Positions 23,811 to 63,447 of a DNA stretch of 64,000 nt are shown here, piece after piece. A program made the position numbers and the translations under genes. The number at the start of each line of letters is the position of its first letter. Position 1 is the stretch's first letter. Source of the stretch: an uncultured Rikenellaceae bacterium (GTDB lineage: Bacteria > Bacteroidota > Bacteroidia > Bacteroidales > VadinHA17); the NCBI GenBank assembly GCA_964435015.1, contig CAYSXP010000022.1:1734-65733 (forward strand), given 5' to 3'. The notes beneath the pieces are model-generated. The model was not told the origin of the DNA and did no database searches. It worked only from the letters and a program-made list of their open reading frames with translations.

Positions 23811-23816
23811 CAATTC

Positions 23817-24584: not shown

Positions 24585-24604
24585 TCCGTTATTAGCTGAA
24601 TTCC

Positions 24605-25516
24605 ATGAAAGCAAATTCAATTCTTGAACTGATAGGAAATACCCCGCATGTCAGAATAAACCGCCTGTTCGGTGAAGGATCCGAAGTATGGCTCAAGCTT
24701 GAAAGATCAAATCCGGGCGGAAGCATCAAGGACCGCATTGCGCTGGCCATGATTGAGGATGCCGAGGCGAAAGGGCTGCTCATGCCGGGAAGTGTCATTA
24801 TTGAACCCACCTCAGGCAATACCGGGATCGGGCTGGCCATGGTGGCAGCCGTGAAAGGCTACAGTATCATCCTGGTCATGCCCGAGTCAATGTCGCCCGA
24901 AAGGCGAAAGATAATGAGCGCCTATGGTGCACAGTTCATTCTTACTCCCCGGGAAAAGGGGATGAAGGGTGCCATTGAGCGGTCGAGGCAGCTGAGGGAT
25001 GAAATTCCCGGGTCGTGGATACCGATGCAGTTTGACAATCCGGCAAACTCCGGGATCCACCAGACCGCCACGGCCATGGAGATCCTCCGCGATTTTCCCG
25101 AAGGCATCGATTACATGTTTGCCGGCGTTGGAACCGGAGGGCATCTTACGGGATGCGCCCGGCAGCTGAAAAAGGAGTTCCCCGGCCTGAAAGTTTTTGC
25201 CGTTGAGCCGGAATTGTCGCCCATACTCAGCGGCGGCACACCCGGTCCCCACCCCATTCAGGGTATAGGGGCAGGATTCGTGCCATCCATTCTCGACACT
25301 TCTCTGATAGATGAAATAATCAAGGTGGGAAAGGAGGAATCGTACAGGTTTGCCAGGAGGGCAGCCAGGGATGAAGGATTGTTTGCCGGAATCTCAACCG
25401 GTGCGGTTCTTGCTGCCGTCAGCCAGGTCTTCGATGATCTGAAGCCGGGATCCAGAATACTGGTTTTCTGCTACGATACGGGTGAAAGATATTTATCCGT
25501 AGATGAATTGTATTGA
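24605..25516 (+). CDS. cysK: cysteine synthase A (O-acetylserine sulfhydrylase)
   Basis: 303 aa. [13 protein letters not shown] and the [17 protein letters not shown]-lysine motif, plus [10 protein letters not shown]. Confidence 0.93.
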
Positions 25517-29937: not shown

Positions 29938-29961
29938 ATATTTCAGATTTTCAGTTTGTTA

Positions 29962-31128: not shown

Positions 31129-31137
31129 TACGGGTAT

Positions 31138-31602
31138 TTATTTCTTCATATAACTTTTAATGATCTCTACAACTCTTTCCGGAGTGAGCTCAGTGAAAGG
31201 CATTTCATTGATAAGCATTGCCGGAGCCTTGTGGCACCATCCTATGCAATTCGTTTCCATCAGGGTGAAAAGCTTGTCGGAAGTGGTTTCTCCAACCTTT
31301 ACTTTCAGCATGTCTTCCAGAACCTGGAGTATCTCTATTTTACCCTTCATTGCACAGGTAATTGTTTTGCAGACTCTTATCACGTACCTGCCACGTTCCT
31401 TCGTGTCGAGAAAAGTGTAAAAAGAGGCTGTCCCATACACCTCTGCAGCCGAGATGTCCAGTTCCTTCGCCACCTCCACCATTGCCTCATCGGTAAGGTA
31501 ACTGTGTTTAGCCACAATACCCTGAAGTACGGGCATCAGACTGTCCCTTGCCCGTCCGTGCTTCTCAGTCAGTTCCTTTACAAGATTTCCTACTTGATAC
31601 AT
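31138..31602 (-). CDS. hydC: NuoE-like thioredoxin-fold [2Fe-2S] subunit of the hydrogenase
   Basis: 154 aa. Cys pattern VCKTITCAM...NCIGWCHKAP is typical of NuoE/HydC. It is the first gene of the hydCBA run. Confidence 0.9.
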   Translation of the reverse strand: MYQVGNLVKELTEKHGRARDSLMPVLQGIVAKHSYLTDEAMVEVAKELDISAAEVYGTASFYTFLDTKERGRYVIRVCKTITCAMKGKIEILQVLEDMLKVKVGETTSDKLFTLMETNCIGWCHKAPAMLINEMPFTELTPERVVEIIKSYMKK

Positions 31603-46800: not shown

Positions 46801-47556
46801 AAGGCTGCCATCATACGCGAAAAGGGAGTTAACGGCGACAGGGAGATGGCTTACGCCCTCTGGCTTGCGGGCTTTGATGTAAGGGATGTGCATATGACAG
46901 ACCTGATGACCGGCCGCGAGACGCTCAGCGATCTGAGCATGATTGTTTTTGCAGGAGGATTTTCAAATTCAGATGTTCTGGGTTCAGCAAAAGGCTGGGC
47001 GGGCGCATTCAGATACAATGAAGCCGCCGGCAAGGCGCTTTCCGCTTTCTTCAGCCGTCCCGATACCCTTTCCCTGGGCGTCTGCAACGGCTGTCAGCTC
47101 ATGACCGGACTCGGTCTTATTTATCCTGAACATAAAGAAATGCCGGAGCTTCTTCCCAACAGTTCGGGCAAATTCGAATCGGGATTTATCGGAGTGACGA
47201 TACCGGAAAACAGATCGGTAATGCTTGGAAACATGTCGGGCATGGAACTCGGCGTCTGGGTCGCCCACGGGGAGGGAAGGTTCAGTCTGCCCTATCCCGA
47301 AGAAAAGTATCATATTGCACTCAGGTACAGCTGCGGTTCCTATCCAGCCAACCCGAACGGGTCGGGTTACGAGGTGGCCGGGCTGTGTTCGGATGACGGG
47401 AGGCACCTTGTAATGATGCCCCACCCTGAGAGGTCGTTCTTCCCGTGGCAATGCGCATATTATCCGCCTGAAAGGAAGCAGGATGAAGTAACGCCATGGA
47501 TAAAGGCATTCATCAACGCCAGGAAGTGGATCGAAAAAAAGGTCAGCGGGTCATAG
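43858..47556 (+). CDS. purL: phosphoribosylformylglycinamidine synthase, single-chain large form
   Basis: 1232 aa. Has the N-terminal domain, AIR-synthase-like repeats (SHCRHKIFN, ETHNFPT) and a C-terminal glutaminase domain (GVCNGCQ...HPE). Confidence 0.95.
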   Translation: MIRFFRKNTGAIIAVQSDAGLTGADSEKLAWLFGNATMISDDRIEGLFIGPRREMITPWSTTAVEITQNMGITGIKRMEEFIFSPGRKPEYDPMLQALYRNPGQDVFTVARDPEKIMPVDNIRRYNEKEGLALSDEEIAYLEKLAAKLSRPLTDSEVFGFSQINSEHCRHKIFNGIFIIDGEEKDSTLFQLIKNTTHFNRNRVVSAYKDNCAFLKGPVVEQFAPATHDKPDYYTVRKYESVLSLKAETHNFPTTVEPFYGASTGSGGEIRDRMAGGRGAFPEAGIAVYMTSYPRIEGGHPWEKAIKERPWLYHSPAGILTKASNGASDFGNKFGQPLICGSLFTFEHSGNMQVYGYDKVIMLAGGIGNGKSSQSEKGIPEKGDLIVLMGGDNYRIGMGGGAVSSVDTGKFDSSIELNAVQRANPEMQKRVYNAIRALCESDNNPVISIHDHGAGGHLNSLAELVEASGGRIDISRLPVGDPTLSAREIIGNESQERMGLIISPADADTVISIAAREKAPLYFIGEITGDHRLVFEDGRTGEKPIDLSVEAMFGDPPRTIIRGSSPAAEAFEKPDYDQSRIHEYVEQVLQIEEVACKDWLTNKVDRSVTGRIAKQQCAGPLQLPLNNLGAIALDYRGRSGFATSLGHAPAAGLIDPAAGSVLSIAEALTNIIWAPLTDGLKSVSLSANWMWPCKNPGEDSRLYTAVQAASQFAIELGINIPTGKDSLSMTQKYSDKVVMAPGTVIITAAGEVNDVRGIVEPVLVNDPYTSLLYIDMSRDDFRTGGSSFAQVLNRVGDEAPTVRDAGYFAGVFNAIQGLIKKGRILAGHDISAGGMITTLLEMCFSNESGGIAANLSALNEADTVKLLLSQNPGIIIQVADENEVSEFLLEHGISYFTIGHPVSERTIRIVNHGETLTFEIDPLRNKWFRTSYLFDRMQCGPAAALERFISYRNHSLRYNFGSFSGTFSSLGITPDRQRKSGTKAAIIREKGVNGDREMAYALWLAGFDVRDVHMTDLMTGRETLSDLSMIVFAGGFSNSDVLGSAKGWAGAFRYNEAAGKALSAFFSRPDTLSLGVCNGCQLMTGLGLIYPEHKEMPELLPNSSGKFESGFIGVTIPENRSVMLGNMSGMELGVWVAHGEGRFSLPYPEEKYHIALRYSCGSYPANPNGSGYEVAGLCSDDGRHLVMMPHPERSFFPWQCAYYPPERKQDEVTPWIKAFINARKWIEKKVSGS

Positions 47557-48085
47557 GTGTAAGAAGCAGCGACATCAGCCGGGTATCGTCGGTTAATCCC
47601 GTAAGCTGGTTCATGGCTTCACGGGGAAGAATTTTCTCGCTGATCACCTGTACATTGTAAACGCCCGCTTCTGAAACATAAAATGATCCCATATAGGAAT
47701 CAGCCCTGAAATAGGGATATGATATGTCGTCTGAATTCCTTACCACCTTATCACAAACAGGATCAACCTCAAGGAAACTGTCAAGAAGAGTCACCTTGAC
47801 CGCATTCACATAGCTGAGATCGGTTGTATCCCTGGTGGCACTTGTGAGCCAGACCTTGAAACGCCCGGGTTTTGCAATAACAACTTTCCATTCGGCAGTG
47901 TTGCTTGCAGGATTCGATGCGTCATTATAGCAGGCTGCCCTGTCAATGTTGAGGACCAGTGAGCCATCTTCCTGCTGGCTGACGGCATTTCCATCATTGG
48001 CTGATTCATTTGACGCCGGGTTATTTCCACACGACCAAAGAAACATAAAAACAATAGCGACAGAAGCAATGATTCTGCTTTTCAT
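47543..48085 (-). CDS. hypothetical lipoprotein
   Basis: Start at the internal ATG 48085 gives MKSRIIASVAIVFMFLWSCGNN, a signal peptide plus lipobox. Mostly beta-rich sequence; no family recognised. The 3' end overlaps the purL 3' end by 14 nt, convergently. Confidence 0.55.
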   Translation of the reverse strand: MKSRIIASVAIVFMFLWSCGNNPASNESANDGNAVSQQEDGSLVLNIDRAACYNDASNPASNTAEWKVVIAKPGRFKVWLTSATRDTTDLSYVNAVKVTLLDSFLEVDPVCDKVVRNSDDISYPYFRADSYMGSFYVSEAGVYNVQVISEKILPREAMNQLTGLTDDTRLMSLLLTPMTR

Positions 48086-48253: not shown

Positions 48254-50146
48254 TCAGGCAAGCTCGCCAATTTTAACATAGCCGGGTGCTGATTTTTTAT
48301 CAACAGTCTTGCTAACCAGCGCCATCTCAGCCAGTTCGGCAATGTCAACAACTTTGGTTGCAGTTGCGTTTGCCAGTGTTTTTTTGCATAAGGGACAGGA
48401 AGTGACAAGAAAATCAGGATCGCATGTCGTGAGTATTTTCGCAGCATCACCGGCAATCTTTCTCCTGTTATCCTGGCTGAGCATTATATTTCCGAGGCTT
48501 CCTCCGCAGCAAAGTGCATTCTCATCATCATAATGAGTTTTTTCGAGCCTGGCCAGATGCATCAGCACCTGCCTGGGCTCTTCATACACTCCCGAATTCC
48601 TGCCAAGGTCGCAGGGTGTATGGTATGTTACCCGGTTATGAAGGAAGTTCATTCTTACCAGGCCTTCGTCAATAATTTTACTGATGAACTGGGAATGATG
48701 CATTACTTCCACATCGAGGTAGTAGCTTTCCCTGAAAACCTTATAGCATATCGGGCACGATGTTACAAGAATGTCAGCTCCCGATTTCAGGATTATCTGT
48801 GAATTGTAATTAATAAGCTCCCTGGCCTCCCTGTCCTGGCCGGCAAGCATCAGGGGCCGGCCGCAGCAGGCTCCTGCATTTTCATCCATGAACGACCAGT
48901 TTAACCCGGTGGCATCAAGGATCTTCGTCATTGCTTTCTTTATTGAAGGGGCAAGATGGGTCATGCAGCCGGCAAAATACAATACTTCGGTTTTTTCCTG
49001 GCTGGCTGCCGGAAGGTAGTCAAATGAGGGCAAGGAGGCAGATCGGGGTTTTGAATTTTTCTTCCGGCCGGGGAAATAGGTTTTCAGAATGGTCCGCTTT
49101 TCCCATACCGGCTCCCCTGCCCTTCTCTGTATCATTCTGACCGGCGACAATTCGATGCCCACGGGGCATTTAACGTCGCAGCGCCCGCATAACAGGCAAT
49201 TGAAGGCCATGTAGCCTGTTTTATCATTGTTCCTGACGGCCTTCATCAGATATACTGACTGCATATCGTTTATTCCGGCAGAGAAGCTCATCTGGCAGGC
49301 ATCGATGCATATGCCGCAGGAGGAGCATGAATGCACCTCCACGTCAGAGTATGTTCCGGCCCTGTCGCCAGTTCTTATACCCGAATTTCTCATGAATATA
49401 AGGAAGAGCTCCGTGGGAATATGCATGTACCGTGTAAGCGGGAGCAGGATGAAGAATGTTCCGAGCGACAATGAATAGAGCCACCAGAAGGGATATGCCA
49501 GTTCACTGGCAGGAAGGAAGGATGCAAGCTGCGCCCCGAGGGTGCCTGTCAGGAAGCTTCCCGTTCCGTATGCACCGCTTGTAAGGCTTTCGGCAATAAG
49601 GCGGCTGGGAAAAATGAGCCACAACGAAACAAGCGCAATCCTGTCGGGCAGGCGGTGCCTTGTGGTTTTCTTCATTCCGACCGTACCCGGCCAGAGCCGC
49701 TTGAAAATGGCCAGGAGCAGGCCCGACAGTACAAAGGCGAGAATTAGGTCCATCAGGAATGCGTAGAACGATTCAAAGGGTGTTTTTCCGTGATCGGGAT
49801 TGAAGAACCTGAAAAAGATCGCCTTGTAGGGCGGGTTAAGATGCTTTTCACCGAAAATGTCGGCCTCAATGGTGCCGAAGAGGATAAGCAGGAACCAGCC
49901 GAAAGCAAGGCTCATGTGCATATATCCGAGCCTGAGATTCGTTTTAAGGATCTTTCTGTGAATGAGGCTTTCCATGAATATCTCCCTCAGGCTCTGTCCG
50001 AAGGCCCTTCCGAAGAATCCCCTCTGCAGCCTCAGCTTGTCGGGGCGTGACAGATCCCTGAACCAGATCACGCTTCGTGCAACAGCGTACAGAAGGATGA
50101 AGTACAATCCTATATTAAAGGGTATTATGAATGGTTCAAATTTCAT
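48254..50146 (-). CDS. membrane-anchored Fe-S oxidoreductase: NarI/HdrE/DsrM-like multi-TM domain fused to an HdrD/DsrK/GlpC-like module (2x[4Fe-4S] plus two CCG domains)
   Basis: Start taken at the ATG 50146 (MKFEPF...). The N-terminal roughly 270 aa are hydrophobic, with His in TM contexts (GYMHMSLAFGWF, LTRYMHIP). Then come CSSCGICIDAC and CLLCGRCDVKCP. Two complete CCG domains follow (FAGCM..CCGRP..SCPIC; HTPCD..CCGGS..SCPLC). Confidence 0.8.
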   Translation of the reverse strand: MKFEPFIIPFNIGLYFILLYAVARSVIWFRDLSRPDKLRLQRGFFGRAFGQSLREIFMESLIHRKILKTNLRLGYMHMSLAFGWFLLILFGTIEADIFGEKHLNPPYKAIFFRFFNPDHGKTPFESFYAFLMDLILAFVLSGLLLAIFKRLWPGTVGMKKTTRHRLPDRIALVSLWLIFPSRLIAESLTSGAYGTGSFLTGTLGAQLASFLPASELAYPFWWLYSLSLGTFFILLPLTRYMHIPTELFLIFMRNSGIRTGDRAGTYSDVEVHSCSSCGICIDACQMSFSAGINDMQSVYLMKAVRNNDKTGYMAFNCLLCGRCDVKCPVGIELSPVRMIQRRAGEPVWEKRTILKTYFPGRKKNSKPRSASLPSFDYLPAASQEKTEVLYFAGCMTHLAPSIKKAMTKILDATGLNWSFMDENAGACCGRPLMLAGQDREARELINYNSQIILKSGADILVTSCPICYKVFRESYYLDVEVMHHSQFISKIIDEGLVRMNFLHNRVTYHTPCDLGRNSGVYEEPRQVLMHLARLEKTHYDDENALCCGGSLGNIMLSQDNRRKIAGDAAKILTTCDPDFLVTSCPLCKKTLANATATKVVDIAELAEMALVSKTVDKKSAPGYVKIGELA

Positions 50147-50480
50147 TTCCTTCAATGATGCCGAAAGCCTTCCGTGCAAGGAACAGGACATTCCTGGTAT
50201 TGACCCCGCGCGGGCAGGCAAGAATGCATTTGCCGCAAAGCATGCATCTTTTCAGCCCTGCCCTTACCCTGTCATTCTCACCGCGTTTAATAAGTACATT
50301 GAATTCCCTGAGACTGAATTCGGTAAAACTGCCGGCCGTGCATGTGGCCGCACATGCACCGCATTCAATGCAAAGGCTGAAGCTCGGTTCATGTTCAAGT
50401 ATATATTCGGCGATCCTCCTGTCGTTTTTATCGTAATCGATAACCCTTGCCTTCGATAATGAAAAACCGAACTTATCCAT
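50136..50480 (-). CDS. small 2x[4Fe-4S] ferredoxin-like protein (HdrC-like fold)
   Basis: CIECGACAATC and CMLCGKCILACP motifs. Start at the ATG 50480 overlaps the upstream stop by 8 nt, and the 3' end overlaps the next gene by 11 nt. Confidence 0.7.
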   Translation of the reverse strand: MDKFGFSLSKARVIDYDKNDRRIAEYILEHEPSFSLCIECGACAATCTAGSFTEFSLREFNVLIKRGENDRVRAGLKRCMLCGKCILACPRGVNTRNVLFLARKAFGIIEGNEI

Positions 50481-51519
50481 TCCGTTTGCCGTTATCCCTG
50501 AGGTAATCAATTATTTCAGCAGCAGCCCCCCTTGCGTGCGAGATCGTTTCCGTCACATTCATGGGTGCTGTGCAGGTGCCTGCATAGAAAATTCCGCTGA
50601 TGTGGCTCCTGTTGTTTCCAAAATGGTTATCGGCAGGGGAAAAGAACCTGTTCTCCCCGGTTTTCAATCCTGAAGCCAGGGCCAGCTTCCTGCCTCCGTC
50701 CGACATCTCCATGCCGGCCATGAGCACCAGCATGTCGACTTCCATCTTCAGCGGTCTTCCGGCAAGCGTGTCTTCAGCCTTAACAATAAGCCTGTTTTCT
50801 ATATTGGCGCCCACCTCCGACACCTTTCCCCTGATGAAATTTATTCCGTATTTTTCCTGTGCCTCACGGTAGAGCTCTTCGTACATGGCCCCTCCCATCC
50901 TCATATCCATGTAGAAGCAGAACACCCTGGCATCCTTTATATGTTCCTTTATTTCCATCGCCTGCTTCACGGCTGTGACGCAGCACAGCTTTGAGCAATA
51001 CAGGTTCCCGACTTTTTCGTCGCGTGAGCCCACGCAATGGATCATTCCTACTGTTGAAGGGATCTGCCCGCCGGTCATCTTTATCTCCCCGTTCCTGAAC
51101 ATGACTTCAAGCTCCGCGGAGGTTATCACATTGTCGTAGATCCCGTATCCATACTCCTCTTTTCTTTCGCTGCGGAACATGTCGAATCCGGTGGCAATCA
51201 GAACAGCATCAGCGGTGACTGACTCCCTCCTGCTGGTTGTCACGATGAAAGATGAACCTTTCCTGTCTACCCTTGCAACGGTTTCTCCGGGAATGAAATC
51301 GATGTTCCCATTATTGATGATGCGGCTGAGATAACTGATTACTTCCCTGCTGTCGCGGCGGTCAGGGAACAGGTGGTACCATTCTTTCAGATGGCCGCCG
51401 GGATCGTCTTCCTTCTCAATAAGCGTAACCCGGATCCCCGATCTTGCAAGCATTCCCGCCGCCTCCATCCCTGCCGCCCCGCCGCCTGCAACAACAACAT
51501 GCGCACTCATCTCAGGCAT
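50473..51519 (-). CDS. hdrA: short HdrA-like FAD-dependent oxidoreductase
   Basis: About 348 aa. The dinucleotide motif is VVVAGGGAAGMEAAGMLA. The HdrA-type Cys motif is CVGSRDEKVGNLYCSKLCC. It is far shorter than methanogen-type HdrA. Start at ATG 51519, or alternatively 51510. Confidence 0.8.
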   Translation of the reverse strand: MPEMSAHVVVAGGGAAGMEAAGMLARSGIRVTLIEKEDDPGGHLKEWYHLFPDRRDSREVISYLSRIINNGNIDFIPGETVARVDRKGSSFIVTTSRRESVTADAVLIATGFDMFRSERKEEYGYGIYDNVITSAELEVMFRNGEIKMTGGQIPSTVGMIHCVGSRDEKVGNLYCSKLCCVTAVKQAMEIKEHIKDARVFCFYMDMRMGGAMYEELYREAQEKYGINFIRGKVSEVGANIENRLIVKAEDTLAGRPLKMEVDMLVLMAGMEMSDGGRKLALASGLKTGENRFFSPADNHFGNNRSHISGIFYAGTCTAPMNVTETISHARGAAAEIIDYLRDNGKRNG

Positions 51520-52573
51520 TGATAAGGTTTTCGGGAACGGGCATCTGTTTTCCGTCCCTGGTGGCAAATTTGTCGCGGATATCGTACTCTATTCCCATCT
51601 TCCTCAGCAGGGGTTCCGACTGCACCATGTGATACTGAAGGCCCAGGTCCCAGGGGTTGTACCCCAGCACGAGCCCGGCAAGCTCTTCGTAAGTAAGGAC
51701 GGGGATCGATTCACCGTTGACGCCGAAAGTGGTGCCTTCCATCTCCTTAATGGTGTATTGCCACTTGTCCATGAACATGGTGCATCCCGGACAGTTCGTC
51801 AGTACCAGGTCGGGTTTGAAGGGCTTCATCGATGAGAATTTTTTCGCAGTGTTGGAAAGAGAATAACCCCGGTTGGCCTGCACAAGGTATTGCCTGAACC
51901 CGAATCCGCAGCAATGGCGCCGTTCCGGATAGTCAACAACCTCTCCGCCCCATGATTCAATCATGCCGCTGAGAACTTTCGGGAACTCAGCGCCTCCCAC
52001 CCCGTATTTGGGGAATATCTTTGCATAATGGCAGCCGATATGTTCAACGACCTTCAGGGGTTCGCCCGTCTGCCTGTTCACAAGCAGGTTTTTTGCGTTT
52101 GCCGCGATCTCATTCCTGAACCTGTAAATGATGTCGCTCGTATGGGCTATGTTCTCAGGCAGGTCAAACTCCCTGCCCGTGGCTTTGTACAGGTATTCCC
52201 TGGTCTTTTCAAGCTGTTCGGGAAAATGTTTCCAGGTTTCCAGTATCTCGGCATAGATACCGAAGGATGTCACGCATGATATGGCAATATTTTTGTATCC
52301 TGCCTCCTTCATGAGTGCATAGTGCCGCGCTATGACGGTCATTATCGTCTGAAAAGGCACTATGTCGGCATGATATCCGATTCCGGTGCATGTAGTGTGG
52401 GATGGATTTTCAAAAACATCCTTTCCGAGCTTGTCGCGAAGGAAGTCGAGAAAAAATTTCTCCGATCCCGGGAAAAAACTCTGCCTTATGCATGACCTGA
52501 CATAAAAAAAGTGGTCATCCGCTATTTCTTTCTGGTAGTCCGACCAGATCCTGTCATTGCCCTCGCTCTCCAT
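51512..52573 (-). CDS. hdrB: HdrB-like protein with CCG domains
   Basis: 353 aa. The C-terminal CCG domain is complete (GCHY...HCCGFG...NCPGC). The N-terminal copy is degenerate (SCIRQ...TTCTGIG...SCVTS). Confidence 0.8.
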   Translation of the reverse strand: MESEGNDRIWSDYQKEIADDHFFYVRSCIRQSFFPGSEKFFLDFLRDKLGKDVFENPSHTTCTGIGYHADIVPFQTIMTVIARHYALMKEAGYKNIAISCVTSFGIYAEILETWKHFPEQLEKTREYLYKATGREFDLPENIAHTSDIIYRFRNEIAANAKNLLVNRQTGEPLKVVEHIGCHYAKIFPKYGVGGAEFPKVLSGMIESWGGEVVDYPERRHCCGFGFRQYLVQANRGYSLSNTAKKFSSMKPFKPDLVLTNCPGCTMFMDKWQYTIKEMEGTTFGVNGESIPVLTYEELAGLVLGYNPWDLGLQYHMVQSEPLLRKMGIEYDIRDKFATRDGKQMPVPENLINA

Positions 52574-52584
52574 GAGTGAAAGAT

Positions 52585-53361
52585 TTATGTGGTTGTGTGG
52601 TTTTTATTGCGGGCCGTATAAACCTCGATGAAATACTCATTATCAATGCCTTCATCATCGAACTGCAATCCCATCTCGGCGGCTTTTTTCCTTGAATGTT
52701 CCTCGATGGTGCTGAATAATTCGGTACCTCCGGTAACTTCAAAGATCTTCCTGAGCTCCTCCTTTGCATCGTCCGGAATTTTTCTCAGGGGTCCGGCTCC
52801 CAGCTCATTGATCTGTCCGCCAAGCCGTTCATAGATGTCGTGGGTGTTTTCAAGGATGTACTTCCATATCGGACCCTGCTCGGCATGCATTTCAGGGCTG
52901 ACAGCGTAGGTTGCCACACAGTATCCGTATTTGAAAATATTCTCGCCGACACTTCTCTTGATTGCGAACTGCTGGCGCCCTTTTTCCGACTCGGTGAAGA
53001 AGCCGAGCTGTTGCGACAGGGTACGGAGCGACATCACCACCAGGGCAGGCGTGTTGCCTCTCGGGCAGCGTGTCTTGCACGACATGCATTCACCGCAGTA
53101 CCATATGGTCTCGGATCTGAGAAGATCCTCAATTTCACGATTGTCGCCCGACTGAACAGTATCGACAATCTGCCTGGGATCGTAGTCGTAGAACTCGGCG
53201 GCAGGGCATATAGCAGTGCAGACACCGCAGTTCATGCAGGCATTCAGGCCTTCAATAAACCTGATGTCCTGCCTGAGAAGATCATAATAGTTTTTCATCC
53301 CCGTGACGATGAAAGATTTAACCTCTGTTAATTTATTAACAAATGTATCTTTTAATAACAT
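52585..53361 (-). CDS. hdrC: HdrC-like 2x[4Fe-4S] protein
   Basis: 258 aa. CMNCGVCTAICP and CGECMSCKTRCP motifs with an HdrC-like extended C-terminus. The alternative start MKNYYDLL is at 53298. Confidence 0.8.
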   Translation of the reverse strand: MLLKDTFVNKLTEVKSFIVTGMKNYYDLLRQDIRFIEGLNACMNCGVCTAICPAAEFYDYDPRQIVDTVQSGDNREIEDLLRSETIWYCGECMSCKTRCPRGNTPALVVMSLRTLSQQLGFFTESEKGRQQFAIKRSVGENIFKYGYCVATYAVSPEMHAEQGPIWKYILENTHDIYERLGGQINELGAGPLRKIPDDAKEELRKIFEVTGGTELFSTIEEHSRKKAAEMGLQFDDEGIDNEYFIEVYTARNKNHTTT

Positions 53362-56642: not shown

Positions 56643-57056
56643 CTATTTGTCCTGTTTGATCCTCGTAAGAGTCAGCGGTATTGATCCTCCTGAATAACCG
56701 GCTGTACCGGTCATCTTATTTTTATCCTCTGCTTTCAGGCTGACCCTCACATATTCACCCTCAACATAAACAGAACAGGTGAGCAGTTCATTTTCCACCT
56801 TAACCTCTTCGCCGGTGATCTTATAGCTGCTTCCATCGGGCAGCACCGTAAGCGAATACTTTTTTTCCGCCAGGCTGACAGCTATTGTTCCGGAATTATA
56901 TCCCGGAGGTGCAGCGGGGGCATCAAACTTCCAGCTGCCGGCAGGATTATGCTTGTTGCCGGCTTTGTCCTGTCCTGATACATGGATGAAAAGAAATAAA
57001 CATACCGTGAAAAAACTGATGTACCGTGTTTTCATTGTGATAAATAATTGGTTCAT
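56643..57056 (-). CDS. small secreted hypothetical protein (lipocalin-like beta-rich)
   Basis: The ORF-track model overlaps mobA. The internal ATG at 57056 (or 57035, giving MKTRYISFFTVCLFLFIHVSGQ) abuts the mobA stop. No family recognised. Confidence 0.5.
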   Translation of the reverse strand: MNQLFITMKTRYISFFTVCLFLFIHVSGQDKAGNKHNPAGSWKFDAPAAPPGYNSGTIAVSLAEKKYSLTVLPDGSSYKITGEEVKVENELLTCSVYVEGEYVRVSLKAEDKNKMTGTAGYSGGSIPLTLTRIKQDK

Positions 57057-57057
57057 C

Positions 57058-57657
57058 TCAAAGATAAAGATCTGCCCTGATCTTTTGAATATCGGAAGGG
57101 GAATTAATGTTTGTAAAGGCCCGTTTTGTTGCCGGTGTGTCTTCCAGCTCAAGATAGCCGGTATTCCTGCGGGCAATAAAATCCCTTACGGACCTGTCAT
57201 GGCGTTCAGCCAGGTATTTTTCAAGATCGGGCAGGATCGAAACCCTGAATACAGAGTGCAAAGGCTCTGCAAGACCTCCCCTTTTTGGCATGAATATCTC
57301 ATATCCGGATTCACTAAAGGCTTCAATCTGCTGCCTGACAATTTCTCTGTCAATCAGGGGCATGTCGCCGGCAAAAATAAAAACCGCGTTGCAGGAAGAT
57401 GCTCTGATGGCGGCATGGATCCCGGCAAGCGGACCGGCATTCAGGAAATGATCACCTGTTACAATGCAGCCCTGATGGCCCTGAAATCGTTCCGGGGTAT
57501 TTGTGACAATGATTATTTCAGGGAAGAGTTCCCCTATTGTACCAATGATCCTGGAGATGATTGTTTTCCCGTCAATCAGCAGGTTTGCCTTTGGCAATCC
57601 CCCGAAGCGCCTGCTGGCGCCTCCGGCAAGGATCGCGCCCGAGACACTGTTTTTCAT
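57058..57657 (-). CDS. mobA: molybdenum cofactor guanylyltransferase
   Basis: 199 aa. AILAGGASRRFGG..K and the GPLAGIHAA and FIFAGDMP motifs of MobA. Confidence 0.85.
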   Translation of the reverse strand: MKNSVSGAILAGGASRRFGGLPKANLLIDGKTIISRIIGTIGELFPEIIIVTNTPERFQGHQGCIVTGDHFLNAGPLAGIHAAIRASSCNAVFIFAGDMPLIDREIVRQQIEAFSESGYEIFMPKRGGLAEPLHSVFRVSILPDLEKYLAERHDRSVRDFIARRNTGYLELEDTPATKRAFTNINSPSDIQKIRADLYL

Positions 57658-57696: not shown

Positions 57697-58323
57697 TCAG
57701 CAGCCTCCGGCGGCTCTTTTTTTCTTTGCAGCCGGCTTTATGACCGGCTTAACCGTTAATGCGTTCTGGTCAGCTGCCGGCTGAACGGCATCGCCTCCGC
57801 CGCCAAGGGCTTGTCCGAGGCTTTTGCGGAAGTCGTACTTTGCAAACTCTTCATCCGAGCTGGTGGAAGCAGGTTTTTGAGGATTAAGTATAGCCTCAAA
57901 CCAGTAGTTCAATCCTCCCTCAAGGACATAATTGTTTTCATATCCAAGCTGCCGGGTTATCAGCCAGGCCTGGTTAGCCGCCAGGGTACCGTTTGAATAG
58001 AACACGTTCATTTTAACATCCTGATGAAGGATATCTGTATATTCATCCGACAGCAGGTCGGAAAAAGGTATGTTAATGGCGCCGGGCAGGCTGTATTTTT
58101 CAAATTCATCCTGGCTCCTCACGTCAATGAGCCGCAGGGAAGGGTCTTTCCGAAGTATCATGTCGGCAACAACATCAGGTGCAATGAACTGTGTGCGCGA
58201 GTTTGCCTCGGTAAGCAGCTGGTCAGCCGTCAGTTTGTATGGGTTGGTCTTATTCTGCGGGACGGCAGCTATGATCAGTCCCATCGGTATCAGGAAAAGG
58301 GCAAGCAGGTTGCGTGGTTTCAT
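57697..58323 (-). CDS. membrane-anchored rhodanese-homology-domain protein (non-canonical active-site loop)
   Basis: 208 aa. N-terminal hydrophobic anchor, then a rhodanese fold (LIDVRSQDEFEKYSLPGAINIP...VLEGGLNYW). The active-site position reads FYSNGTLA, with Ser where the Cys is expected. The only Cys is the last residue (...KKKRAAGGC). Confidence 0.75.
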   Translation of the reverse strand: MKPRNLLALFLIPMGLIIAAVPQNKTNPYKLTADQLLTEANSRTQFIAPDVVADMILRKDPSLRLIDVRSQDEFEKYSLPGAINIPFSDLLSDEYTDILHQDVKMNVFYSNGTLAANQAWLITRQLGYENNYVLEGGLNYWFEAILNPQKPASTSSDEEFAKYDFRKSLGQALGGGGDAVQPAADQNALTVKPVIKPAAKKKRAAGGC

Positions 58324-58356
58324 ATTTTTATAAAATTAGTTTTAATGTCATAAAGA

Positions 58357-58947
58357 TCAATAAGTTTCGCGCGGGAATTTCTTTTCGGCCCACTCCGCTG
58401 CCGCAAACATTGCGAGTGCCGTCAATATCAGCAGCAACCCGAACACGCCGTCTGAAAGGCCGAGCGACTCACTTACCTTCGGTTCGCCGAGGTATTTTGC
58501 AAGATACAACTTTTCCCACCATCCGTAGGTAAAGGCAAAACCGTAAACACCAATAAAAAGGCCCCCGATGAACACCATGGCATCAATTTTGCCGATTGCG
58601 GCGCCGCAGAAGCTTGTGCCCGGGCAGAATCCGCCCATGATGAATCCTGCACCCATCACCACCCCCCCGACAATGGCAGAAGTGAGATAGGTGGGATTAA
58701 TATATACGAGGTTAAGGTCGATCCATCCGAAAAGGCCCATGAAAAGCAGGCCCAGCATGGCAGTTATGGCCGCAGTGAAGAAAACTTTCAGAACAACGGC
58801 GTCGTAACCGTAAAAAACGCCGGCCAGCTTCCGGCTCGATGAGAACCCGCTGCTTTCAAGCACCCATCCGAAAGCGATGCCGATGAAGAATGCCAGCAGG
58901 AAATTTGTGTTCTCAGAAATTAATTCATTTGGTGCCAGTGGTCCCAT
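58357..58947 (-). CDS. YeeE/YedE-family sulfur-compound transporter, half-size protein
   Basis: 196 aa, multi-TM, with a GGFCPGTS motif typical of the sulphur-transport (YeeE/YedE) family. Confidence 0.85.
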   Translation of the reverse strand: MGPLAPNELISENTNFLLAFFIGIAFGWVLESSGFSSSRKLAGVFYGYDAVVLKVFFTAAITAMLGLLFMGLFGWIDLNLVYINPTYLTSAIVGGVVMGAGFIMGGFCPGTSFCGAAIGKIDAMVFIGGLFIGVYGFAFTYGWWEKLYLAKYLGEPKVSESLGLSDGVFGLLLILTALAMFAAAEWAEKKFPRETY

Positions 58948-59126
58948 ATCCTGTGTAATTTAATTGATTTTCATCCGTAAATTGATTGACATACCGTATC
59001 TCCATGGTCTTCCTGAACCCGTCCGTTCAATGCTGTCCATCCCGGTGAGATCTCCGGGAATGTCACCCGCGGGTGCAATGTTCTCCGATGTTTCGCGGAA
59101 GATCTTTTTCGTTGCCGATATCATTC

Positions 59127-59660
59127 TCATATCCAGTTTTTTCTGAAGAAATACGCCAGTATGAATGCAGTGCCGAATATTGCCATCATGGTAATAAAGC
59201 CACCCAGCGAAAGGACGGCCATGCCGCTGAGCGCCGATCCGCTGGTGCATCCTCTTCCCAGCTGCGATCCGAAACCGAAAAGGATGCCGCCGGCAAGGGC
59301 AAAGACCAGTCGCCTGCGCGGGGTGATCGTGGGTGAATGTTCCACCTTCAGCTTAAGCCTCCCGGCAAGGGCCCCGGAAATGAATCCGCCCACAATCACT
59401 CCCAGCATCTGAAAAACCAGCCAGGTCTTCAGCGGATTTCCCGAATGCGATTCGGCGTATTCATTCAGGAATGGCATCTTTTCCGCCGCATTCCTGTCGG
59501 CCTTTTCGATGGTAAAGGCGATCACGCTCTTCACGGCACCGCTTGCTCCAAGCCCTCTCCCTGCAATGAAATTAGCCGATAACAGCACCAGGCCAAGCAA
59601 AACACCCCCCAGATACGGATTCAGGTATTTATTTGCCCTTGTTTCTTTTGTAGTAGTCAT
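59127..59660 (-). CDS. YeeE/YedE-family sulfur-compound transporter, half-size protein
   Basis: 177 aa, multi-TM, with GRGLGASG and GRGCTSGS motifs typical of YeeE/YedE. Confidence 0.85.
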   Translation of the reverse strand: MTTTKETRANKYLNPYLGGVLLGLVLLSANFIAGRGLGASGAVKSVIAFTIEKADRNAAEKMPFLNEYAESHSGNPLKTWLVFQMLGVIVGGFISGALAGRLKLKVEHSPTITPRRRLVFALAGGILFGFGSQLGRGCTSGSALSGMAVLSLGGFITMMAIFGTAFILAYFFRKNWI

Positions 59661-59693
59661 TTGAAGTTATTTATTAAAGTATTCGCATATTCA

Positions 59694-60635
59694 TCAGTAC
59701 AGATACCTGCTCGCCTGCCCCGCATAAACAATTATGAACCGCAGCATAAAGCTTCCGAAAATGACCAGGAGCGGTGACACAAAGGCAGGTATGTGAAATT
59801 TCCCCAATTCGAGTATCTCAAGCAGGGCCGGCACTATCAGTCCGAGAATCACCACAAAGATCCAGAATGAGGCGGTGTATTCACCGCCCAGGAACATTCC
59901 TGCGGCCTCTATCTGAACCTGGGTGCTTGCAAGGTATCCCATGAACATATGGACGATAAGAAAAAGCTCAATTCCGATTATTGCAAGGTCGATCTTTGCA
60001 AACTGCTTTCTTTCGGCGGGGTCATTTGACAGGAAGATGATTGTTGCCGCCCCTGCCGACAATCCCGAAGCAAGGAACAGGGGCCCGAGTATGGAGGTGT
60101 TCCACAGCGGCCTTGCATTGAACGCCGACAGCAGGATCCCGGTATAGATGCCCAGGATGAGCCCGAAGATCAGCATGATCCATGCAAGGGCCGGTTTATG
60201 CCTGTTAAAGAAGGCTTCAAGGTTAAAGAGCCATTTGTACCGCCAGTTCCATTGCGGAAATATATCTTTTATATGGAGGGCGCACCAGATAAAGGAAACC
60301 GGTGTGACAACCATGAGGGTCCATGCTCCCCACGACATTGGCGACTGCATCCTTATGTTCGTGTAGAGCTGCCAGAAGTAGAGTTTGTGCCGCAGGTCGG
60401 CGAACAGCGCCAGCAGTCCGATCACCAGGAGGATCGGTGCAAGGAAGGGGGCCACCCTTACGGCCGTATAGTATTGCTTTTCCTTTCCCCTGATATAATA
60501 AAGAGCCGAGAAGCACAGTATTCCGGCCGCCATTCCGCCAAGGAAAAGATAGAGTGGTATCTGCCAGTGCCATATATGAAGGGTGGGATCGATCATGCTG
60601 TTCATCCTTCCGCTGACAATTATTTCTTCTTTCAT
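59694..60635 (-). CDS. psrC: NrfD/PsrC-type integral membrane quinol-interacting subunit
   Basis: 313 aa with about 8 TM segments. WQIPLYLFLGGMAAG is the typical NrfD-family start. It follows the Fe-S and molybdopterin subunits. Confidence 0.85.
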   Translation of the reverse strand: MKEEIIVSGRMNSMIDPTLHIWHWQIPLYLFLGGMAAGILCFSALYYIRGKEKQYYTAVRVAPFLAPILLVIGLLALFADLRHKLYFWQLYTNIRMQSPMSWGAWTLMVVTPVSFIWCALHIKDIFPQWNWRYKWLFNLEAFFNRHKPALAWIMLIFGLILGIYTGILLSAFNARPLWNTSILGPLFLASGLSAGAATIIFLSNDPAERKQFAKIDLAIIGIELFLIVHMFMGYLASTQVQIEAAGMFLGGEYTASFWIFVVILGLIVPALLEILELGKFHIPAFVSPLLVIFGSFMLRFIIVYAGQASRYLY

Positions 60636-60679
60636 TTTATGCAGTTTTGATATTAAGGACCGGTCAGTCTTTCAAAGCC

Positions 60680-61213
60680 TCAGATCAGGAAATAGAGCTG
60701 CGGGTCGGTTCCGGCTTCGGGAACAAGGGTTTTATGCTTCCTTTTCCGGAGGATCTGCGACACATCGCTGTTGGGATCATGAAGGTCGCCGAAGTAAAGG
60801 CATTTGGTGGGGCACACGGCAACGCAGGCCGGGTCCATTCCCTTTTTGATCCGGTGGGCGCAGAAGGTGCATTTGTCAACATATCCTGCCGGATGCGGGT
60901 ACCTGGCATCATACGGGCATGAGACAATGCAGGCCCCGCACCCTATGCATTCGCCCGGCACAACCACAACGATCCCTCCTTCGGTGTAGCGGCTCGCCCC
61001 TGTCGGGCAGCAGCGGACACACGGAGCATTGACGCAATGATTGCATCGTTCCGACCTGATCTCCATTTCAAGCCGCGGATAGGTGCCATCAGTGACCTCA
61101 ACGATCCAGTCGCGGCAGTATCCGACGGGTACATTGTTCTCAGCCTGGCACGCAACGACACAATCGCTGCATCCGACGCACTTCCGCGTATCTGCGGCCA
61201 TCGCGTATCTCAT
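60680..61213 (-). CDS. psrB: 4x[4Fe-4S] ferredoxin subunit of a molybdopterin oxidoreductase (PsrB/DmsB-like)
   Basis: 177 aa. CVGCSDCVVAC, CNHCVNAPCVRCCP, CIGCGACIVSCP and CTFCAHR motifs. ATGA overlap with the upstream gene at 61210-61213. Confidence 0.9.
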   Translation of the reverse strand: MRYAMAADTRKCVGCSDCVVACQAENNVPVGYCRDWIVEVTDGTYPRLEMEIRSERCNHCVNAPCVRCCPTGASRYTEGGIVVVVPGECIGCGACIVSCPYDARYPHPAGYVDKCTFCAHRIKKGMDPACVAVCPTKCLYFGDLHDPNSDVSQILRKRKHKTLVPEAGTDPQLYFLI

Positions 61214-63447
61214 GATTCCGCCTCCTTTCCTGCTTTTTCCGTTACAAACGTCACAAAATTCCCCCTCATACCCGTGCCTCCCATTATGGGGTCAGTCATA
61301 ACCCTGGTTATCAGCTGGGTGTCACTGGCGCCCTTGCCGTAGCAACGCTTCATCTGCTTCTGCGCATGGCCGAATCCATGGACCATGTACACCGAATCCC
61401 ACCGTATCCGCTCAGTGACCCTGACCTTTACAGGAAATTCCGACACAACGTCATCCTGGTTTTTCAGCCGTATATACTGGTCATTGACTATCCCCCACTC
61501 CCCTGCCACCTTTGGATTCACCCACACGCTGTTCTCATCCATCAGATCCGTCAGGTTGGGATTGTTCGAGGTACGGCTGAAGGTGTGCATGGGCGCCCTG
61601 CCGTAAATAAGGCGGTAATACCCTTCGGGGGGCTCCCCGTGAGGAGTGTACCTGGGCAGCGGATCGAATCCCATCTGCTCAAGATATGAAGAATAAAGTT
61701 CTATTTTTCCAGAATCGGTCGAAAATCCGGCCGGCTCATCTTCACCTATGTAAATATCATCGTTTTCGCGTTCGAAGTTTTTCACCCCGGTTTTTTTCAG
61801 TTCATCGAGCGACAATCCTGCCTGCTTCAGCTGCCAGTCAATGAGATCTTCCTGCCGTTCGAAGGGAAACCATGGGCCCAGATCGAGTTTGAGGGCAAGT
61901 TCCCTTGCTATCCGGTACCCCGGCCTGGTGTCGTACATGGGCTCGGCAGCAGGCATCCTGAGGGCTATTGCCGGCTTGCGGTGAGGGCTCGTCCGGATGA
62001 CATCATACCTTTCCAGGTAGGTGCATTCCGGGAGCACCACGTCGGCCCACCCGGTGATCTCCATGGGCATGGTGTCGACGGCAACGACAAGATCAAGGTT
62101 CTGTACCGCCCTTATTGTTTTTGCCTGATCGGGAACGGTAAGCATGAGATTGCATGCGTTGACGAACCATCCCTTGATGGGATAGGCGGGATTGTTCTCA
62201 GGGATCGACCCGTCAATAAGGGCGTTGGTGACCACCAGGCCCGCACCGGGGTATTTCCCGGGGAAAAGATCGGCCCATGTCCGTGAGGGCTCGGGATAGG
62301 CTGGCAAGACGGGTGAAGGCAGCTCATACCTTGCCGGGCGGTAAAACCCGCCTCTCCTGCCCCATGACCCCAGGAGGGCGTTCAGTATTGCAATGGCACG
62401 GCTCCGCTGGGTGTCATCACCGTACCATGTCACATGACGGCCCGGGTGAACCAGAACAGCCGGTGAGGCATTTGCCATCTCCCGGGCGGTCTTGCGGATG
62501 ATATCGGGTGCGATGGTGGTGATGCCGTGGGCCCATTCGGGAGTGAAATCCCTGACATGCGCCTTCAGCTGATCAAATCCCAGGCAATATTTTTCAACAT
62601 ATTTCCTGTCGAAATATTCATTGTAGATGATCTCATGCATCCAGGCAAGCAGCAGGGCAATATCCGTGGCGGGCTTAACGGGAAGCCAGTACTTCGATTT
62701 CCCGGCGGCAGTCGAAAAGCGGGGATCAACTGTTATTATCACCGCTCCCTTGTCGATCGCATCCGACATTTCCTGTACCTGGCTGTTATGCATGTTCTCC
62801 CCTATATGCGATCCTATCAGCACAAGGCACCTGGTGTCGCGGATATCGGTGATCTCCGGCGAATAAACTTCTTCCCCGAAAGTTGCAATGAATGCTTCAT
62901 CCCTGGGTCCGCGGCATTGCGCGTACGATGGTTCCGCGATGTTTGGCGATCCGTAAGCCCTGAACAGGTTGTTGAAATTGCTGCTGCCCGATCCATGGGT
63001 GAACAAAGCCATGCTTTCAGGCCCGTAATCGGAGGAGATCTTTTTCATCCTCACGGCAATGTATGCGAGAGCTTCATCCCAGTCTGCTTCCCTGAAAACC
63101 TGCTTTCCCCTCTGCGAGGTCCTGATAAGCGGCCTCTTCAGCCTGTCCCCGTCATGGTACATGCCAACCCCGCCGGTGCCACGCGGACAGAGCCGCCCGT
63201 TGCAGTGCTGGTCGTCGTCGTTCCCCACTATCTTCCAGATGTCTCCTCCGGGTGTTTTATAAACCCAGCCCGCACACTTCCAGAAACACAATTCGCAATA
63301 CGTTGGCACCCGGCTCGCACCGGTTCCGGTATCCGCAAGCCCGTCTGACGAAGGATCCGTGCCGAAAAACCTGCAGCCGCCCGTGCCAAGGGCCAGAGCA
63401 CCTGCCCCTAAAAATGAGATCCTTATGAATTCTCTCCTGCTGGCCAT
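61210..63447 (-). CDS. psrA: TAT-exported bis-MGD molybdopterin oxidoreductase catalytic subunit (polysulfide/thiosulfate reductase-like)
   Basis: 745 aa. Twin-arginine signal SRREFIRISFLGAGALA and an N-terminal 4Fe-4S motif, CELCFWKC...C..RLCPRG. The size and PsrABC gene order fit the Psr/Phs clade. Substrate is not determinable by eye. Confidence 0.85.
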   Translation of the reverse strand: MASRREFIRISFLGAGALALGTGGCRFFGTDPSSDGLADTGTGASRVPTYCELCFWKCAGWVYKTPGGDIWKIVGNDDDQHCNGRLCPRGTGGVGMYHDGDRLKRPLIRTSQRGKQVFREADWDEALAYIAVRMKKISSDYGPESMALFTHGSGSSNFNNLFRAYGSPNIAEPSYAQCRGPRDEAFIATFGEEVYSPEITDIRDTRCLVLIGSHIGENMHNSQVQEMSDAIDKGAVIITVDPRFSTAAGKSKYWLPVKPATDIALLLAWMHEIIYNEYFDRKYVEKYCLGFDQLKAHVRDFTPEWAHGITTIAPDIIRKTAREMANASPAVLVHPGRHVTWYGDDTQRSRAIAILNALLGSWGRRGGFYRPARYELPSPVLPAYPEPSRTWADLFPGKYPGAGLVVTNALIDGSIPENNPAYPIKGWFVNACNLMLTVPDQAKTIRAVQNLDLVVAVDTMPMEITGWADVVLPECTYLERYDVIRTSPHRKPAIALRMPAAEPMYDTRPGYRIARELALKLDLGPWFPFERQEDLIDWQLKQAGLSLDELKKTGVKNFERENDDIYIGEDEPAGFSTDSGKIELYSSYLEQMGFDPLPRYTPHGEPPEGYYRLIYGRAPMHTFSRTSNNPNLTDLMDENSVWVNPKVAGEWGIVNDQYIRLKNQDDVVSEFPVKVRVTERIRWDSVYMVHGFGHAQKQMKRCYGKGASDTQLITRVMTDPIMGGTGMRGNFVTFVTEKAGKEAES

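Follow-up and report, generated by a model that had tools for sequence, protein, structure and literature searches.

A five-gene Hdr-like cassette with an EMO-type membrane subunit in Bacteroidota and Altiarchaeales, a candidate electron wire between a thiol site and menaquinone

We analyzed a 64,000-nt stretch of DNA (hereafter, the window) from an uncultured Rikenellaceae bacterium (GenBank assembly GCA_964435015.1, contig CAYSXP010000022.1, positions 1,734 to 65,733). Five minus-strand genes between positions 53361 and 48254 of the window, placed with their most plausible starts from the open reading frame (ORF) listing and the sequence, form a cassette related to heterodisulfide reductases (Hdr). 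The last of them encodes a membrane protein, MemD (name coined here), that resembles the EMO family, i.e., the menaquinone oxidoreductases of electron-transferring flavoprotein (ETF). In reading order, the genes are as follows.

52585..53361, minus strand: hdrC-like gene, 258 aa; two [4Fe-4S] motifs and a C-terminal extension
51512..52573, minus strand: hdrB-like gene, 353 aa; a complete C-terminal CCG motif and a reduced N-terminal CCG motif
50473..51519, minus strand: short hdrA-like gene, 348 aa; FAD-binding fold and one [4Fe-4S] site
50136..50483, minus strand: HdrC-type 2x[4Fe-4S] ferredoxin gene, 115 aa; Pfam Fer4_9/Fer4_7/Fer4_8
48254..50146, minus strand: MemD gene, 630 aa; five-helix NarI/HdrE/EMO-type membrane domain fused to an HdrD-like module

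An 11-nt gap separates hdrC from hdrB, and the other three junctions overlap: hdrB/hdrA by 8 nt, with the hdrA ATG within ATGCCTGA overlapping the hdrB stop, hdrA/ferredoxin by 8 nt, with the ferredoxin ATG within ATGGATAA, and ferredoxin/MemD by 11 nt, with the MemD ATG within ATGAAATTTGA. These spacings had been given in a preliminary description of the locus, and both the ORF listing and the sequence bear them out. Its five domain assignments were also right according to Pfam and NCBIfam, the two collections used for assignment, which agree on all five proteins, and the motifs it reported in HdrC, HdrA and the fusion protein are present. It had further proposed a single coupled unit; the order and the overlapping junctions are kept in 73 of the 80 best related loci, all from uncultured Bacteroidales, and the other seven loci are cut by contig ends. 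Because gene order and overlapping junctions recur in related loci, the operon arrangement is not a matter of chance. No minus-strand terminator-like sites were found inside 48254-53361; it should be noted that the scan for sigma-70 promoters and terminators performed no better overall than on shuffled sequence.

The HdrC-like protein is an HdrC-type dicluster protein (Pfam Fer4_8/Fer4_17), with the HdrC family as its best NCBIfam match (96 bits versus a cut-off of 350). Both this protein and the ferredoxin carry two CxxCxxCxxxC motifs, and all eight cysteines of each are invariant; here and below, invariance refers to Bacteroidota and Altiarchaeales together. The HdrB-like protein, a Pfam CCG protein that matches NCBIfam HdrB at 144 bits (cut-off 450), aligns end to end with the methanogen HdrB structures and is the probable catalytic subunit. 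The CCG domains ascribed to it earlier proved unequal: the C-terminal one has the full, invariant set of cysteines (C181, C221, C222, C261 and C264), whereas the N-terminal one retains three of the five canonical cysteines (CC->TC, CxxC->CxxS), with C28, C62, C100 and H68 invariant. The reduced N-terminal motif, xC...YH...CxTSFG, is present as well in sHdrB1 of Hyphomicrobium, whose type I locus (L081) was compared with the cassette as a case of the sulfur-oxidizing (sHdr) systems.

Scores against this locus place both proteins nearer to the first than to the second of its HdrC/HdrB pairs. For HdrC, we found 29% identity and 99 bits with sHdrC1 versus 42 bits with sHdrC2; for HdrB, 107 bits with sHdrB1 versus 55 bits with sHdrB2. 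Phylogenies of HdrB and HdrA were constructed by bootstrapped neighbor joining, with type II sHdr sequences left out. In the HdrB tree, sequences from Bacteroidota, Altiarchaeales and a broad clade of relatives, P0126, are joined with 100% bootstrap support, and this group is sister to the sHdrB1 clade (98%), not inside it. Methanogen HdrB, sHdrB2 and the HdrBs encoded beside long HdrA lie outside.

The short HdrA-like flavoprotein contains the motifs GGGAAG and CVGSRD...YCSKLCC, has the FAD/pyridine-nucleotide-disulfide-oxidoreductase fold, and finds its best NCBIfam matches in HdrA (248 versus a cut-off of 1100). Four invariant cysteines (C162, C175, C179 and C180) make up the CxGSRD...CSxxCC [4Fe-4S] motif, which occupies the position of the NAD(P)H-binding motif that this protein lacks. 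The alignment of the protein with the sHdrA structure 6TJR spans its full length (residues 8-337 versus 4-337, E = 3e-52), and its full-length identity to sHdrA of Hyphomicrobium is 31%. The core of the protein is also alignable with methanogen HdrA; the ferredoxin domains that canonical HdrA carries at the N-terminus, as an insertion and at the C-terminus are missing.

The preliminary description regarded hdrC-hdrB-hdrA as sHdr-style. This applies to the gene order and to HdrB, the sister of sHdrB1, but it fails for the HdrA core: in the neighbor-joining tree, the HdrAs of Bacteroidota and Altiarchaeales group with canonical long HdrA (100% bootstrap), apart from sHdrA as well as from the short HdrAs found in Syntrophaceae and Acidobacteriota. 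Since HdrB is sister to sHdrB1 and the HdrA core belongs with the long HdrAs, the cassette is, judging from sequence relationships, a mosaic of B1-type HdrCB, a truncated canonical-type HdrA, an HdrC-type ferredoxin and an EMO-type anchor. The phylogenies of HdrB and HdrA (window positions 50473-52573) are incongruent, and either module shuffling or the origin of short HdrA forms on more than one occasion may account for this.

The ferredoxin has HdrC as its best NCBIfam match, and its gene always lies between hdrA and the membrane gene in the loci examined. In MemD, the C-terminal half consists of a Pfam Fer4_8 dicluster domain and two CCG domains, giving two cubane motifs and two complete CCG motifs whose 8 + 10 cysteines are all invariant. 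Hydropathy and charge distribution predict five transmembrane helices, an external N-terminus and a cytoplasmic C-terminal Fe-S domain; five helices were also counted by DSSP. A profile search aligned MemD with EtfD of Mycobacterium smegmatis (PDB 9OJN) at E = 4e-22 and 81 bits, in the soluble part only. In EtfD, a single heme b is ligated by His78 and His241 of a five-helix domain (PMC13083937). In the EMO of Syntrophus aciditrophicus (SaEMO), H87/H251 are the ligands of heme bP and H233 is the ligand of the distal heme, the latter histidine being a conserved feature of EMO-like domains (bioRxiv 10.64898/2026.08.18.745454). The invariant histidines of MemD are H63, H77 and H242, of which H77 and H242 match the positions of the heme-bP ligands in EtfD (H78/H241) and SaEMO (H87/H251), whereas the position of the distal-heme histidine, 18 residues before H242, is an invariant tyrosine (Tyr224). 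MemD therefore belongs to the EMO/EtfD/HdrDE family and probably carries a single, proximal heme b. We infer the homology of the membrane domain from motif and topology, sequence searches in this region being below significance.

The cassette is widespread. At least 590 species-level Bacteroidota genomes carry it, including one isolate (Thermophagus sp.), and a scan of the genome collection detected close relatives of MemD in at least 577 species-representative genomes. The Bacteroidales carriers come from digesters, fens, sediments and groundwater. A second genome scan, ranked by similarity to the archaeal homologue, yielded a divergent Bacteroidota set, with a Paludibacter metagenome-assembled genome (MAG), a Prolixibacteraceae MAG and the isolate Thermophagus sp. 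OGC60D27 among its members; MemD is 43-49% identical here and the five genes are again contiguous. The flanking genes vary from locus to locus in this set, which marks the five genes as an autonomous conserved unit. Although identities between the lineages are in the range of 37-50%, all predicted ligands of clusters and heme are invariant. A search for the same gene order in Bacteroidota had been proposed at the outset; the order is conserved there and, in addition, in Altiarchaeales.

The archaeal carriers came to light in a search with HdrB against 1.84 billion cluster representatives, which returned 815 relatives at E <= 1e-3. The nearest full-length HdrBs outside Bacteroidota, P0130 and P0126, are 45-46% identical. 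Genomic context was taken from loci of the metagenome and genome scans, the contigs of the exact proteins being mostly too short. P0130 belongs to Candidatus Altiarchaeales WOR_SM1, whose contigs carry the five genes in the same order, with identities to the window proteins of 43% (HdrC), 43% (HdrB), 47% (HdrA), 43-47% (ferredoxin) and 37-39% (MemD). Outside Bacteroidota, the full cassette was seen only in Altiarchaeales, and this distribution implies lateral transfer. One Altiarchaeales genome (L168/L174/L175) has duplicated hdrC-hdrB pairs, a small Nitro_FeMo-Co-domain gene and a small Cys-rich ORF in its cluster, and no GcvH-family gene after the cassette.

The P0126 clade comprises Acidimicrobiales, Planctomycetota, Acidobacteriota, Myxococcota, Syntrophaceae (including Syntrophus buswellii), Smithella, Desulfomonilia and Dehalococcoidales; in these lineages hdrC-hdrB-short hdrA is kept and paired with other modules. 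In Syntrophaceae, Smithella and Desulfomonilia (L287-L302), an hdrC with an N-terminal extension, hdrB and short hdrA are accompanied by a soluble HdrD-like protein of 422 aa with two cubane motifs, two CCG domains and no membrane domain. In Syntrophus buswellii DM-2 (L289:8896-13388), the neighbors of the locus are sugar-modification genes. An Acidobacteriota MAG (L277:7698-16540) has a QmoC-like gene (HdrC-type ferredoxin plus NarI-like domain) followed by hdrC, hdrB and short hdrA, and downstream of hdrA a PsrB::NrfD fusion and a 950-aa Psr-like molybdopterin oxidoreductase. Matches to PsrB-like and PsrA-like proteins (tblastn) lie directly after hdrA in about 18 loci of Acidimicrobiales, Planctomycetota and Acidobacteriota (within L251-L283). 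The L277-type locus looks like another, undescribed Hdr-molybdoenzyme membrane complex. Taken together, these arrangements show that Hdr modules with a short HdrA have repeatedly been recombined with NarI-type, NrfD-type or soluble HdrD-type partners, in at least seven phyla.

From the gene structure, the cofactor-binding motifs, the family relationships and the conservation of the cassette, we infer the assembly of one complex, the order of its electron wire, its substrate and its direction. With moderate confidence, we favor the view that the five proteins make up a membrane-bound Hdr-like complex that wires a cytoplasmic thiol/disulfide (or persulfide) site to the menaquinone pool. Electrons would enter at HdrB, with its complete non-cubane [4Fe-4S] site and reduced second site, and pass through the two cubanes of HdrC to the short HdrA (FAD and one [4Fe-4S] cluster), probably a dimer as in sHdrA and HdrA. 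From there, the two cubanes of the small ferredoxin would lead to MemD, whose two non-cubane clusters, two cubanes and one proximal heme b would deliver them to menaquinone near the cytoplasmic face. Menaquinone would accept the electrons from a reduced thiol or sulfane-sulfur carrier, and fumarate or polysulfide/thiosulfate respiration would be supplied in this way. If the sHdrAA'C1B1C2B2 model is taken as an analogue, the position of its C2B2 arm would be filled by the ferredoxin and MemD; the core idea of the preliminary description, that a quinone-linked membrane module of the HdrE/HdrD type replaces C2B2, holds in this respect. Electroneutral, downhill flow is favored because MemD shows the single-heme pattern of mycobacterial EtfD. 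Further support comes from the P0126 clade, in which hdrCBA modules of other phyla are also joined to quinone-type membrane modules.

Outside the cassette, the window includes the following features.

57697-63447, minus strand: psrABC/YeeE/rhodanese locus, on the same strand as the cassette and upstream of it
58357-58947 and 59127-59660, minus strand: YeeE/Sulf_transp in two ORFs, covering profile positions 9-156 and 167-309
57697-58323, minus strand: rhodanese-like gene with an N-terminal signal or anchor sequence; the protein ends in ...AAGGC, with a C-terminal Cys
56643-57176, minus strand: orf177, adjoining the rhodanese-like gene and conserved in many loci; signal peptide, no Pfam match
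47543..48085, minus strand: predicted lipoprotein gene downstream of the cassette; signal peptide and lipobox MKSRIIASVAIVFMFLWSC, no Pfam match
28156-31602, minus strand: HydABC-type cluster of three genes (NuoE/NuoF-like plus [FeFe] hydrogenase)
20320-25516, plus strand: sulfate activation and cysteine/methionine synthesis cluster

The position and strand of the sulfur locus agree with the preliminary description. The upstream minus-strand set consists of a membrane protein, an M1 peptidase, a MobA-like protein, the rhodanese-like protein, YeeE in two halves and psrCBA, ending at 63447. The YeeE ORFs are separated by a 179-nt gap; as related loci (L201 and L204) share the two-part form, it is probably genuine and not a frameshift. 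The usual active-site cysteine of the rhodanese-like protein is apparently replaced by YSNGT, as judged by eye. At least nine Bacteroidales loci besides the window have YeeE, the rhodanese-like gene and orf177 upstream of the cassette, with the YeeE and rhodanese-like genes on the same strand as the cassette; in the divergent Bacteroidota set these genes do not appear. We rejected the psr/YeeE/rhodanese locus as a direct partner: the linkage is recurrent, not universal, and the rhodanese-like protein and orf177 are apparently exported. Most loci of the close Bacteroidales clade have the lipoprotein gene after the cassette, and its conservation, like that of the M1 peptidase gene upstream, is limited to this clade; the lipoprotein gene was rejected as a sixth component, being absent from the divergent Bacteroidota and Altiarchaeales loci.

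The host looks like an anaerobic fermenter. HydABC-type clusters are typical of bifurcating/confurcating hydrogenases, which points to a fermentative, H2-producing organism, and the window also holds peptidase genes. The genes at 20320-25516 encode a CysD-like PAPS_reduct protein, a CysN-like GTPase, a pyridoxal-phosphate enzyme of Cys/Met metabolism, a CysE-like hexapeptide transferase and a CysK-like PALP protein. No apr or dsr genes were found in the ORFs scanned at 20-64 kb of the window, and no ETF domain turned up in the ORFs that were Pfam-scanned (positions 20320-63976).

Homologues of GcvH/LbpA, DsrE and sHdrH were sought by tblastn, with LbpA and DsrE3 of Hyphomicrobium and an LbpA-like protein of Altiarchaeales as queries, and none was present in the 64-kb window. 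The earlier claim that lbpA, tusA and dsrE are missing nearby thus stands for lbpA and dsrE; TusA was not a query. The only LbpA-like match was in Altiarchaeales WOR_SM1_86-2 (L172:12666-13082; L173:12398-12811), in which a GcvH-family gene lies directly after MemD on the same strand; the lipoyl-lysine context is ETGKWVG versus ESGKWVG in Hyphomicrobium LbpA, and the two proteins are 33% identical. A sulfur or lipoyl-thiol substrate has moderate support on two counts, namely the linkage of this HdrB lineage to Psr-type or YeeE genes in two independent clades and the LbpA-type gene adjoining the cassette in an archaeon. The sulfur role put forward in the preliminary description may thus be retained in conditional form: the linkage to YeeE, rhodanese-like and Psr genes recurs and is not universal, and the LbpA-like neighbor is a single archaeal case.

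Several points weigh against our preferred view. No LbpA/GcvH, DsrE or sHdrH homologue was found within ~8-10 kb of the cassette in ~150 Bacteroidota loci. The rhodanese-like protein and orf177, having signal peptides, are probably not cytoplasmic partners. The AlphaFold2 model of MemD, built on a 40-sequence alignment of homologues 70-89% identical, had a predicted local distance difference test (pLDDT) score of 54, and below 50 in the membrane domain, and was not used for a fold search. The HdrA core resembles that of bifurcating HdrA, so that a simple linear transfer may be wrong. In characterized EMO/EtfD proteins, the non-cubane clusters transfer electrons and are not catalytic; MemD may therefore add no second thiol site. 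Finally, two Bacteroidales MAGs, EPI_MAG_00065 and 00084 (L214:5877-10782 and L223), have hdrA-ferredoxin-memD with no hdrC or hdrB upstream in the available sequence (7.5 kb in L214 and 1.6 kb in L223); this suggests that HdrA-ferredoxin-MemD may be a functional sub-module, or that hdrCB has been relocated within these genomes. The gene before hdrA in L214 encodes a glutamate dehydrogenase.

The two points on non-cubane clusters and on missing hdrCB also speak for a non-sulfur role. HdrA and the ferredoxin could act like ETF, feeding the EMO-type quinone reductase from some other reductant, with HdrBC as an electron-transfer or regulatory module; alternatively, HdrBC could oxidize an organic acid in the manner of LutA, GlcF or GlpC. 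CCG domains are known in lactate, glycolate and glycerol-3-phosphate enzymes (weak matches here). The preliminary description had allowed for subunits clustering with a non-sulfur system, and MemD does fall into a family of non-sulfur ETF:menaquinone oxidoreductases. HdrB and HdrC, however, match Hdr families best in comparison with the Lut, Glc and Glp families (LdhH 34 bits versus HdrB 144 bits). In addition, no GlcD/GlpA/LutBC-type dehydrogenase partner or EtfAB is linked to the cassette, and HdrA is devoid of an NAD(P)H-binding motif. We consider a non-sulfur role, in either form, to be quite unlikely.

The same complex could run in reverse, as a menaquinol-dependent reductase of disulfides, persulfides or polysulfide. 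Its function would then be akin to that of HdrDE or DsrMK, which are established to work in this direction, and MemD keeps all ten CCG cysteines, like catalytic HdrD. Such an enzyme would be a cytoplasmic electron sink in thiosulfate/polysulfide respiration, possibly with a confurcating low-potential donor at the HdrA flavin; the affinity of the HdrA core to bifurcating HdrA, the nearby psrABC, YeeE and rhodanese-like genes, and the Psr-like molybdoenzyme genes that adjoin sister hdrCBA modules are all compatible with it. On the other hand, menaquinol (about -74 mV) is, in the absence of coupling, ill suited to reduce most thiol/disulfide couples, MemD lacks the histidine that ligates the distal heme in the redox-loop enzyme SaEMO, and the cassette includes no low-potential donor module (hydrogenase, Fdh, NADH module or HdrA ferredoxin domains). 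The reductive direction deserves to be taken seriously, although we regard it as less probable than not by a wide enough distance to call it unlikely. A bolder possibility, which we rate as improbable, is that the cassette represents an unrecognized, widespread class of membrane-bound flavin-based bifurcating/confurcating enzyme, in which electrons would be split or merged at the flavin of a truncated, canonical-type HdrA, the other stations being two distinct non-cubane thiol/sulfur sites (in HdrB and in the HdrD-like domain of MemD) and the menaquinone pool. If true, fermentative Bacteroidota and, by lateral transfer, Altiarchaeales would possess a new form of energy coupling that links thiol/sulfane-sulfur (or lipoyl-protein) redox chemistry to anaerobic respiration.

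Hdr-like complexes and EMO-type quinone reductases both have a central, partly understood place in anaerobic energy metabolism, and the Bacteroidales that carry the cassette are commonly seen as plain fermenters. Should the complex shuttle electrons between a thiol or sulfane-sulfur carrier and menaquinone, their respiratory chains would have an unrecognized input or output, and a contribution to cryptic sulfur cycling in methanogenic habitats may follow as well. The cassette also offers a natural minimal system in which non-cubane clusters, the flavin of a short HdrA and a one-heme NarI-type anchor would cooperate, and its presence in a cultured Thermophagus strain makes the system testable.

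Among known systems, type I sHdr (Hyphomicrobium denitrificans, Aquifex, Acidithiobacillus) shares with the cassette the C-B-A order, an HdrA of ~350 aa with FAD and one [4Fe-4S] cluster, the modified N-terminal HdrB motif and the closeness of HdrC/HdrB to C1/B1. It differs in that identities are only 25-31%, the cassette HdrB has no N-terminal extension, and there is no counterpart of the 282-aa sHdrH, no soluble C2B2 and no linked LbpA or DsrE; where type I loci continue after hdrA with sHdrH, sHdrC2 and sHdrB2, the cassette has the ferredoxin and the membrane fusion. Type II sHdr, found in Sulfobacillus, Chloroflexota and Actinobacteriota, is closer in organization. Its gene set, shdrC1B1AHB3-etfAB-emo, links sHdr to an EMO-type membrane protein (PMC11094781), with electron delivery to menaquinone proposed, and MemD is likewise of the EMO type; the hdrC-hdrB-short hdrA core order is the same. 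The cassette, however, lacks sHdrH, a separate sHdrB3 and EtfAB, has the 115-aa ferredoxin between hdrA and the EMO-like gene, shows no linked lbpA or DsrE in Bacteroidota loci (TusA was not a query), and has an HdrA core outside the sHdrA clade in a comparison that held no type II sequences. With these defining genes missing (sHdrH, C2B2/B3 and EtfAB), the cassette falls outside the definitions of both sHdr types, and membership was rejected.

The cassette could still be a streamlined sHdr that oxidizes LbpA-bound persulfide to sulfite; the genes for LbpA and the sulfur transferases would then lie at other sites of the Bacteroidota genomes. The relation of HdrB to sHdrB1 and of HdrC to sHdrC1, the use of an EMO by type II sHdr and the LbpA-type gene following the cassette in Altiarchaeales WOR_SM1_86-2 speak for this. 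The missing sHdr subunits, the failure to find LbpA or DsrE around the Bacteroidota loci and the placement of HdrA speak against it, as do hosts that look like strict fermenters with a bifurcating-type [FeFe] hydrogenase; moreover, the published sHdr survey makes no mention of Bacteroidota in its main text (PMC11094781). We hold this explanation to be very doubtful.

With EMO and EtfD, MemD shares the single chain, five transmembrane helices, the proximal heme-b histidine pair, and two cubane and two CCG clusters, and with EtfD in particular the one-heme pattern. The differences are the tyrosine in place of the distal histidine, which is conserved even in EtfD, the presence of all five cysteines in both CCG motifs, as in HdrD and unlike in characterized EMOs, and the genetic neighborhood, which consists of HdrA, HdrB, HdrC and the ferredoxin instead of EtfAB; no etfAB was found near any cassette examined. 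The methanogen HdrABC and HdrDE enzymes resemble the cassette in the folds and cofactor set of HdrB, HdrC and the HdrA core, and MemD corresponds to HdrE plus HdrD in one chain. Here, however, HdrA has no MvhD-binding or ferredoxin-cluster domains (348 versus ~650 aa), HdrB has 8 versus 10 cluster cysteines, NCBIfam scores are far below the cut-offs, and the hosts are not methanogens and offer no CoM/CoB context. QmoABC and DsrMK likewise couple an HdrA-like flavoprotein or an HdrD-like protein to a NarI-type cytochrome b that exchanges electrons with menaquinone. Qmo, however, has two HdrA-like subunits and no HdrB, whereas the cassette has one HdrA-like gene; the scores are low (DsrK 60 bits versus a cut-off of 400, QmoC 41 versus 300), and aprAB or dsrC context is absent. 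Membership in methanogen HdrABC/HdrDE, Qmo, DsrMK or TfrB was rejected, with scores below cut-off and the right partners missing. The CCG enzymes GlpC (79 versus 278), GlcF (53 versus 333) and LdhH (92 versus 800) were rejected on the same scale, and no LutBC, GlcDE, GlpAB or FAD-oxidase partners lie in or near the cassette.

The preliminary description did not recognize the architecture as a described system, and no description of this five-gene system was found in the literature that could be searched; the idea of a soluble-plus-membrane Hdr hybrid is nevertheless not without precedent, since type II sHdr already joins sHdr to an EMO. Every part of the cassette comes from a known family. What is novel is the ETF-free combination of C-B-A with a ferredoxin and an EMO fusion; its origin as a mosaic and its broad distribution across Bacteroidota and Altiarchaeales are novel as well.

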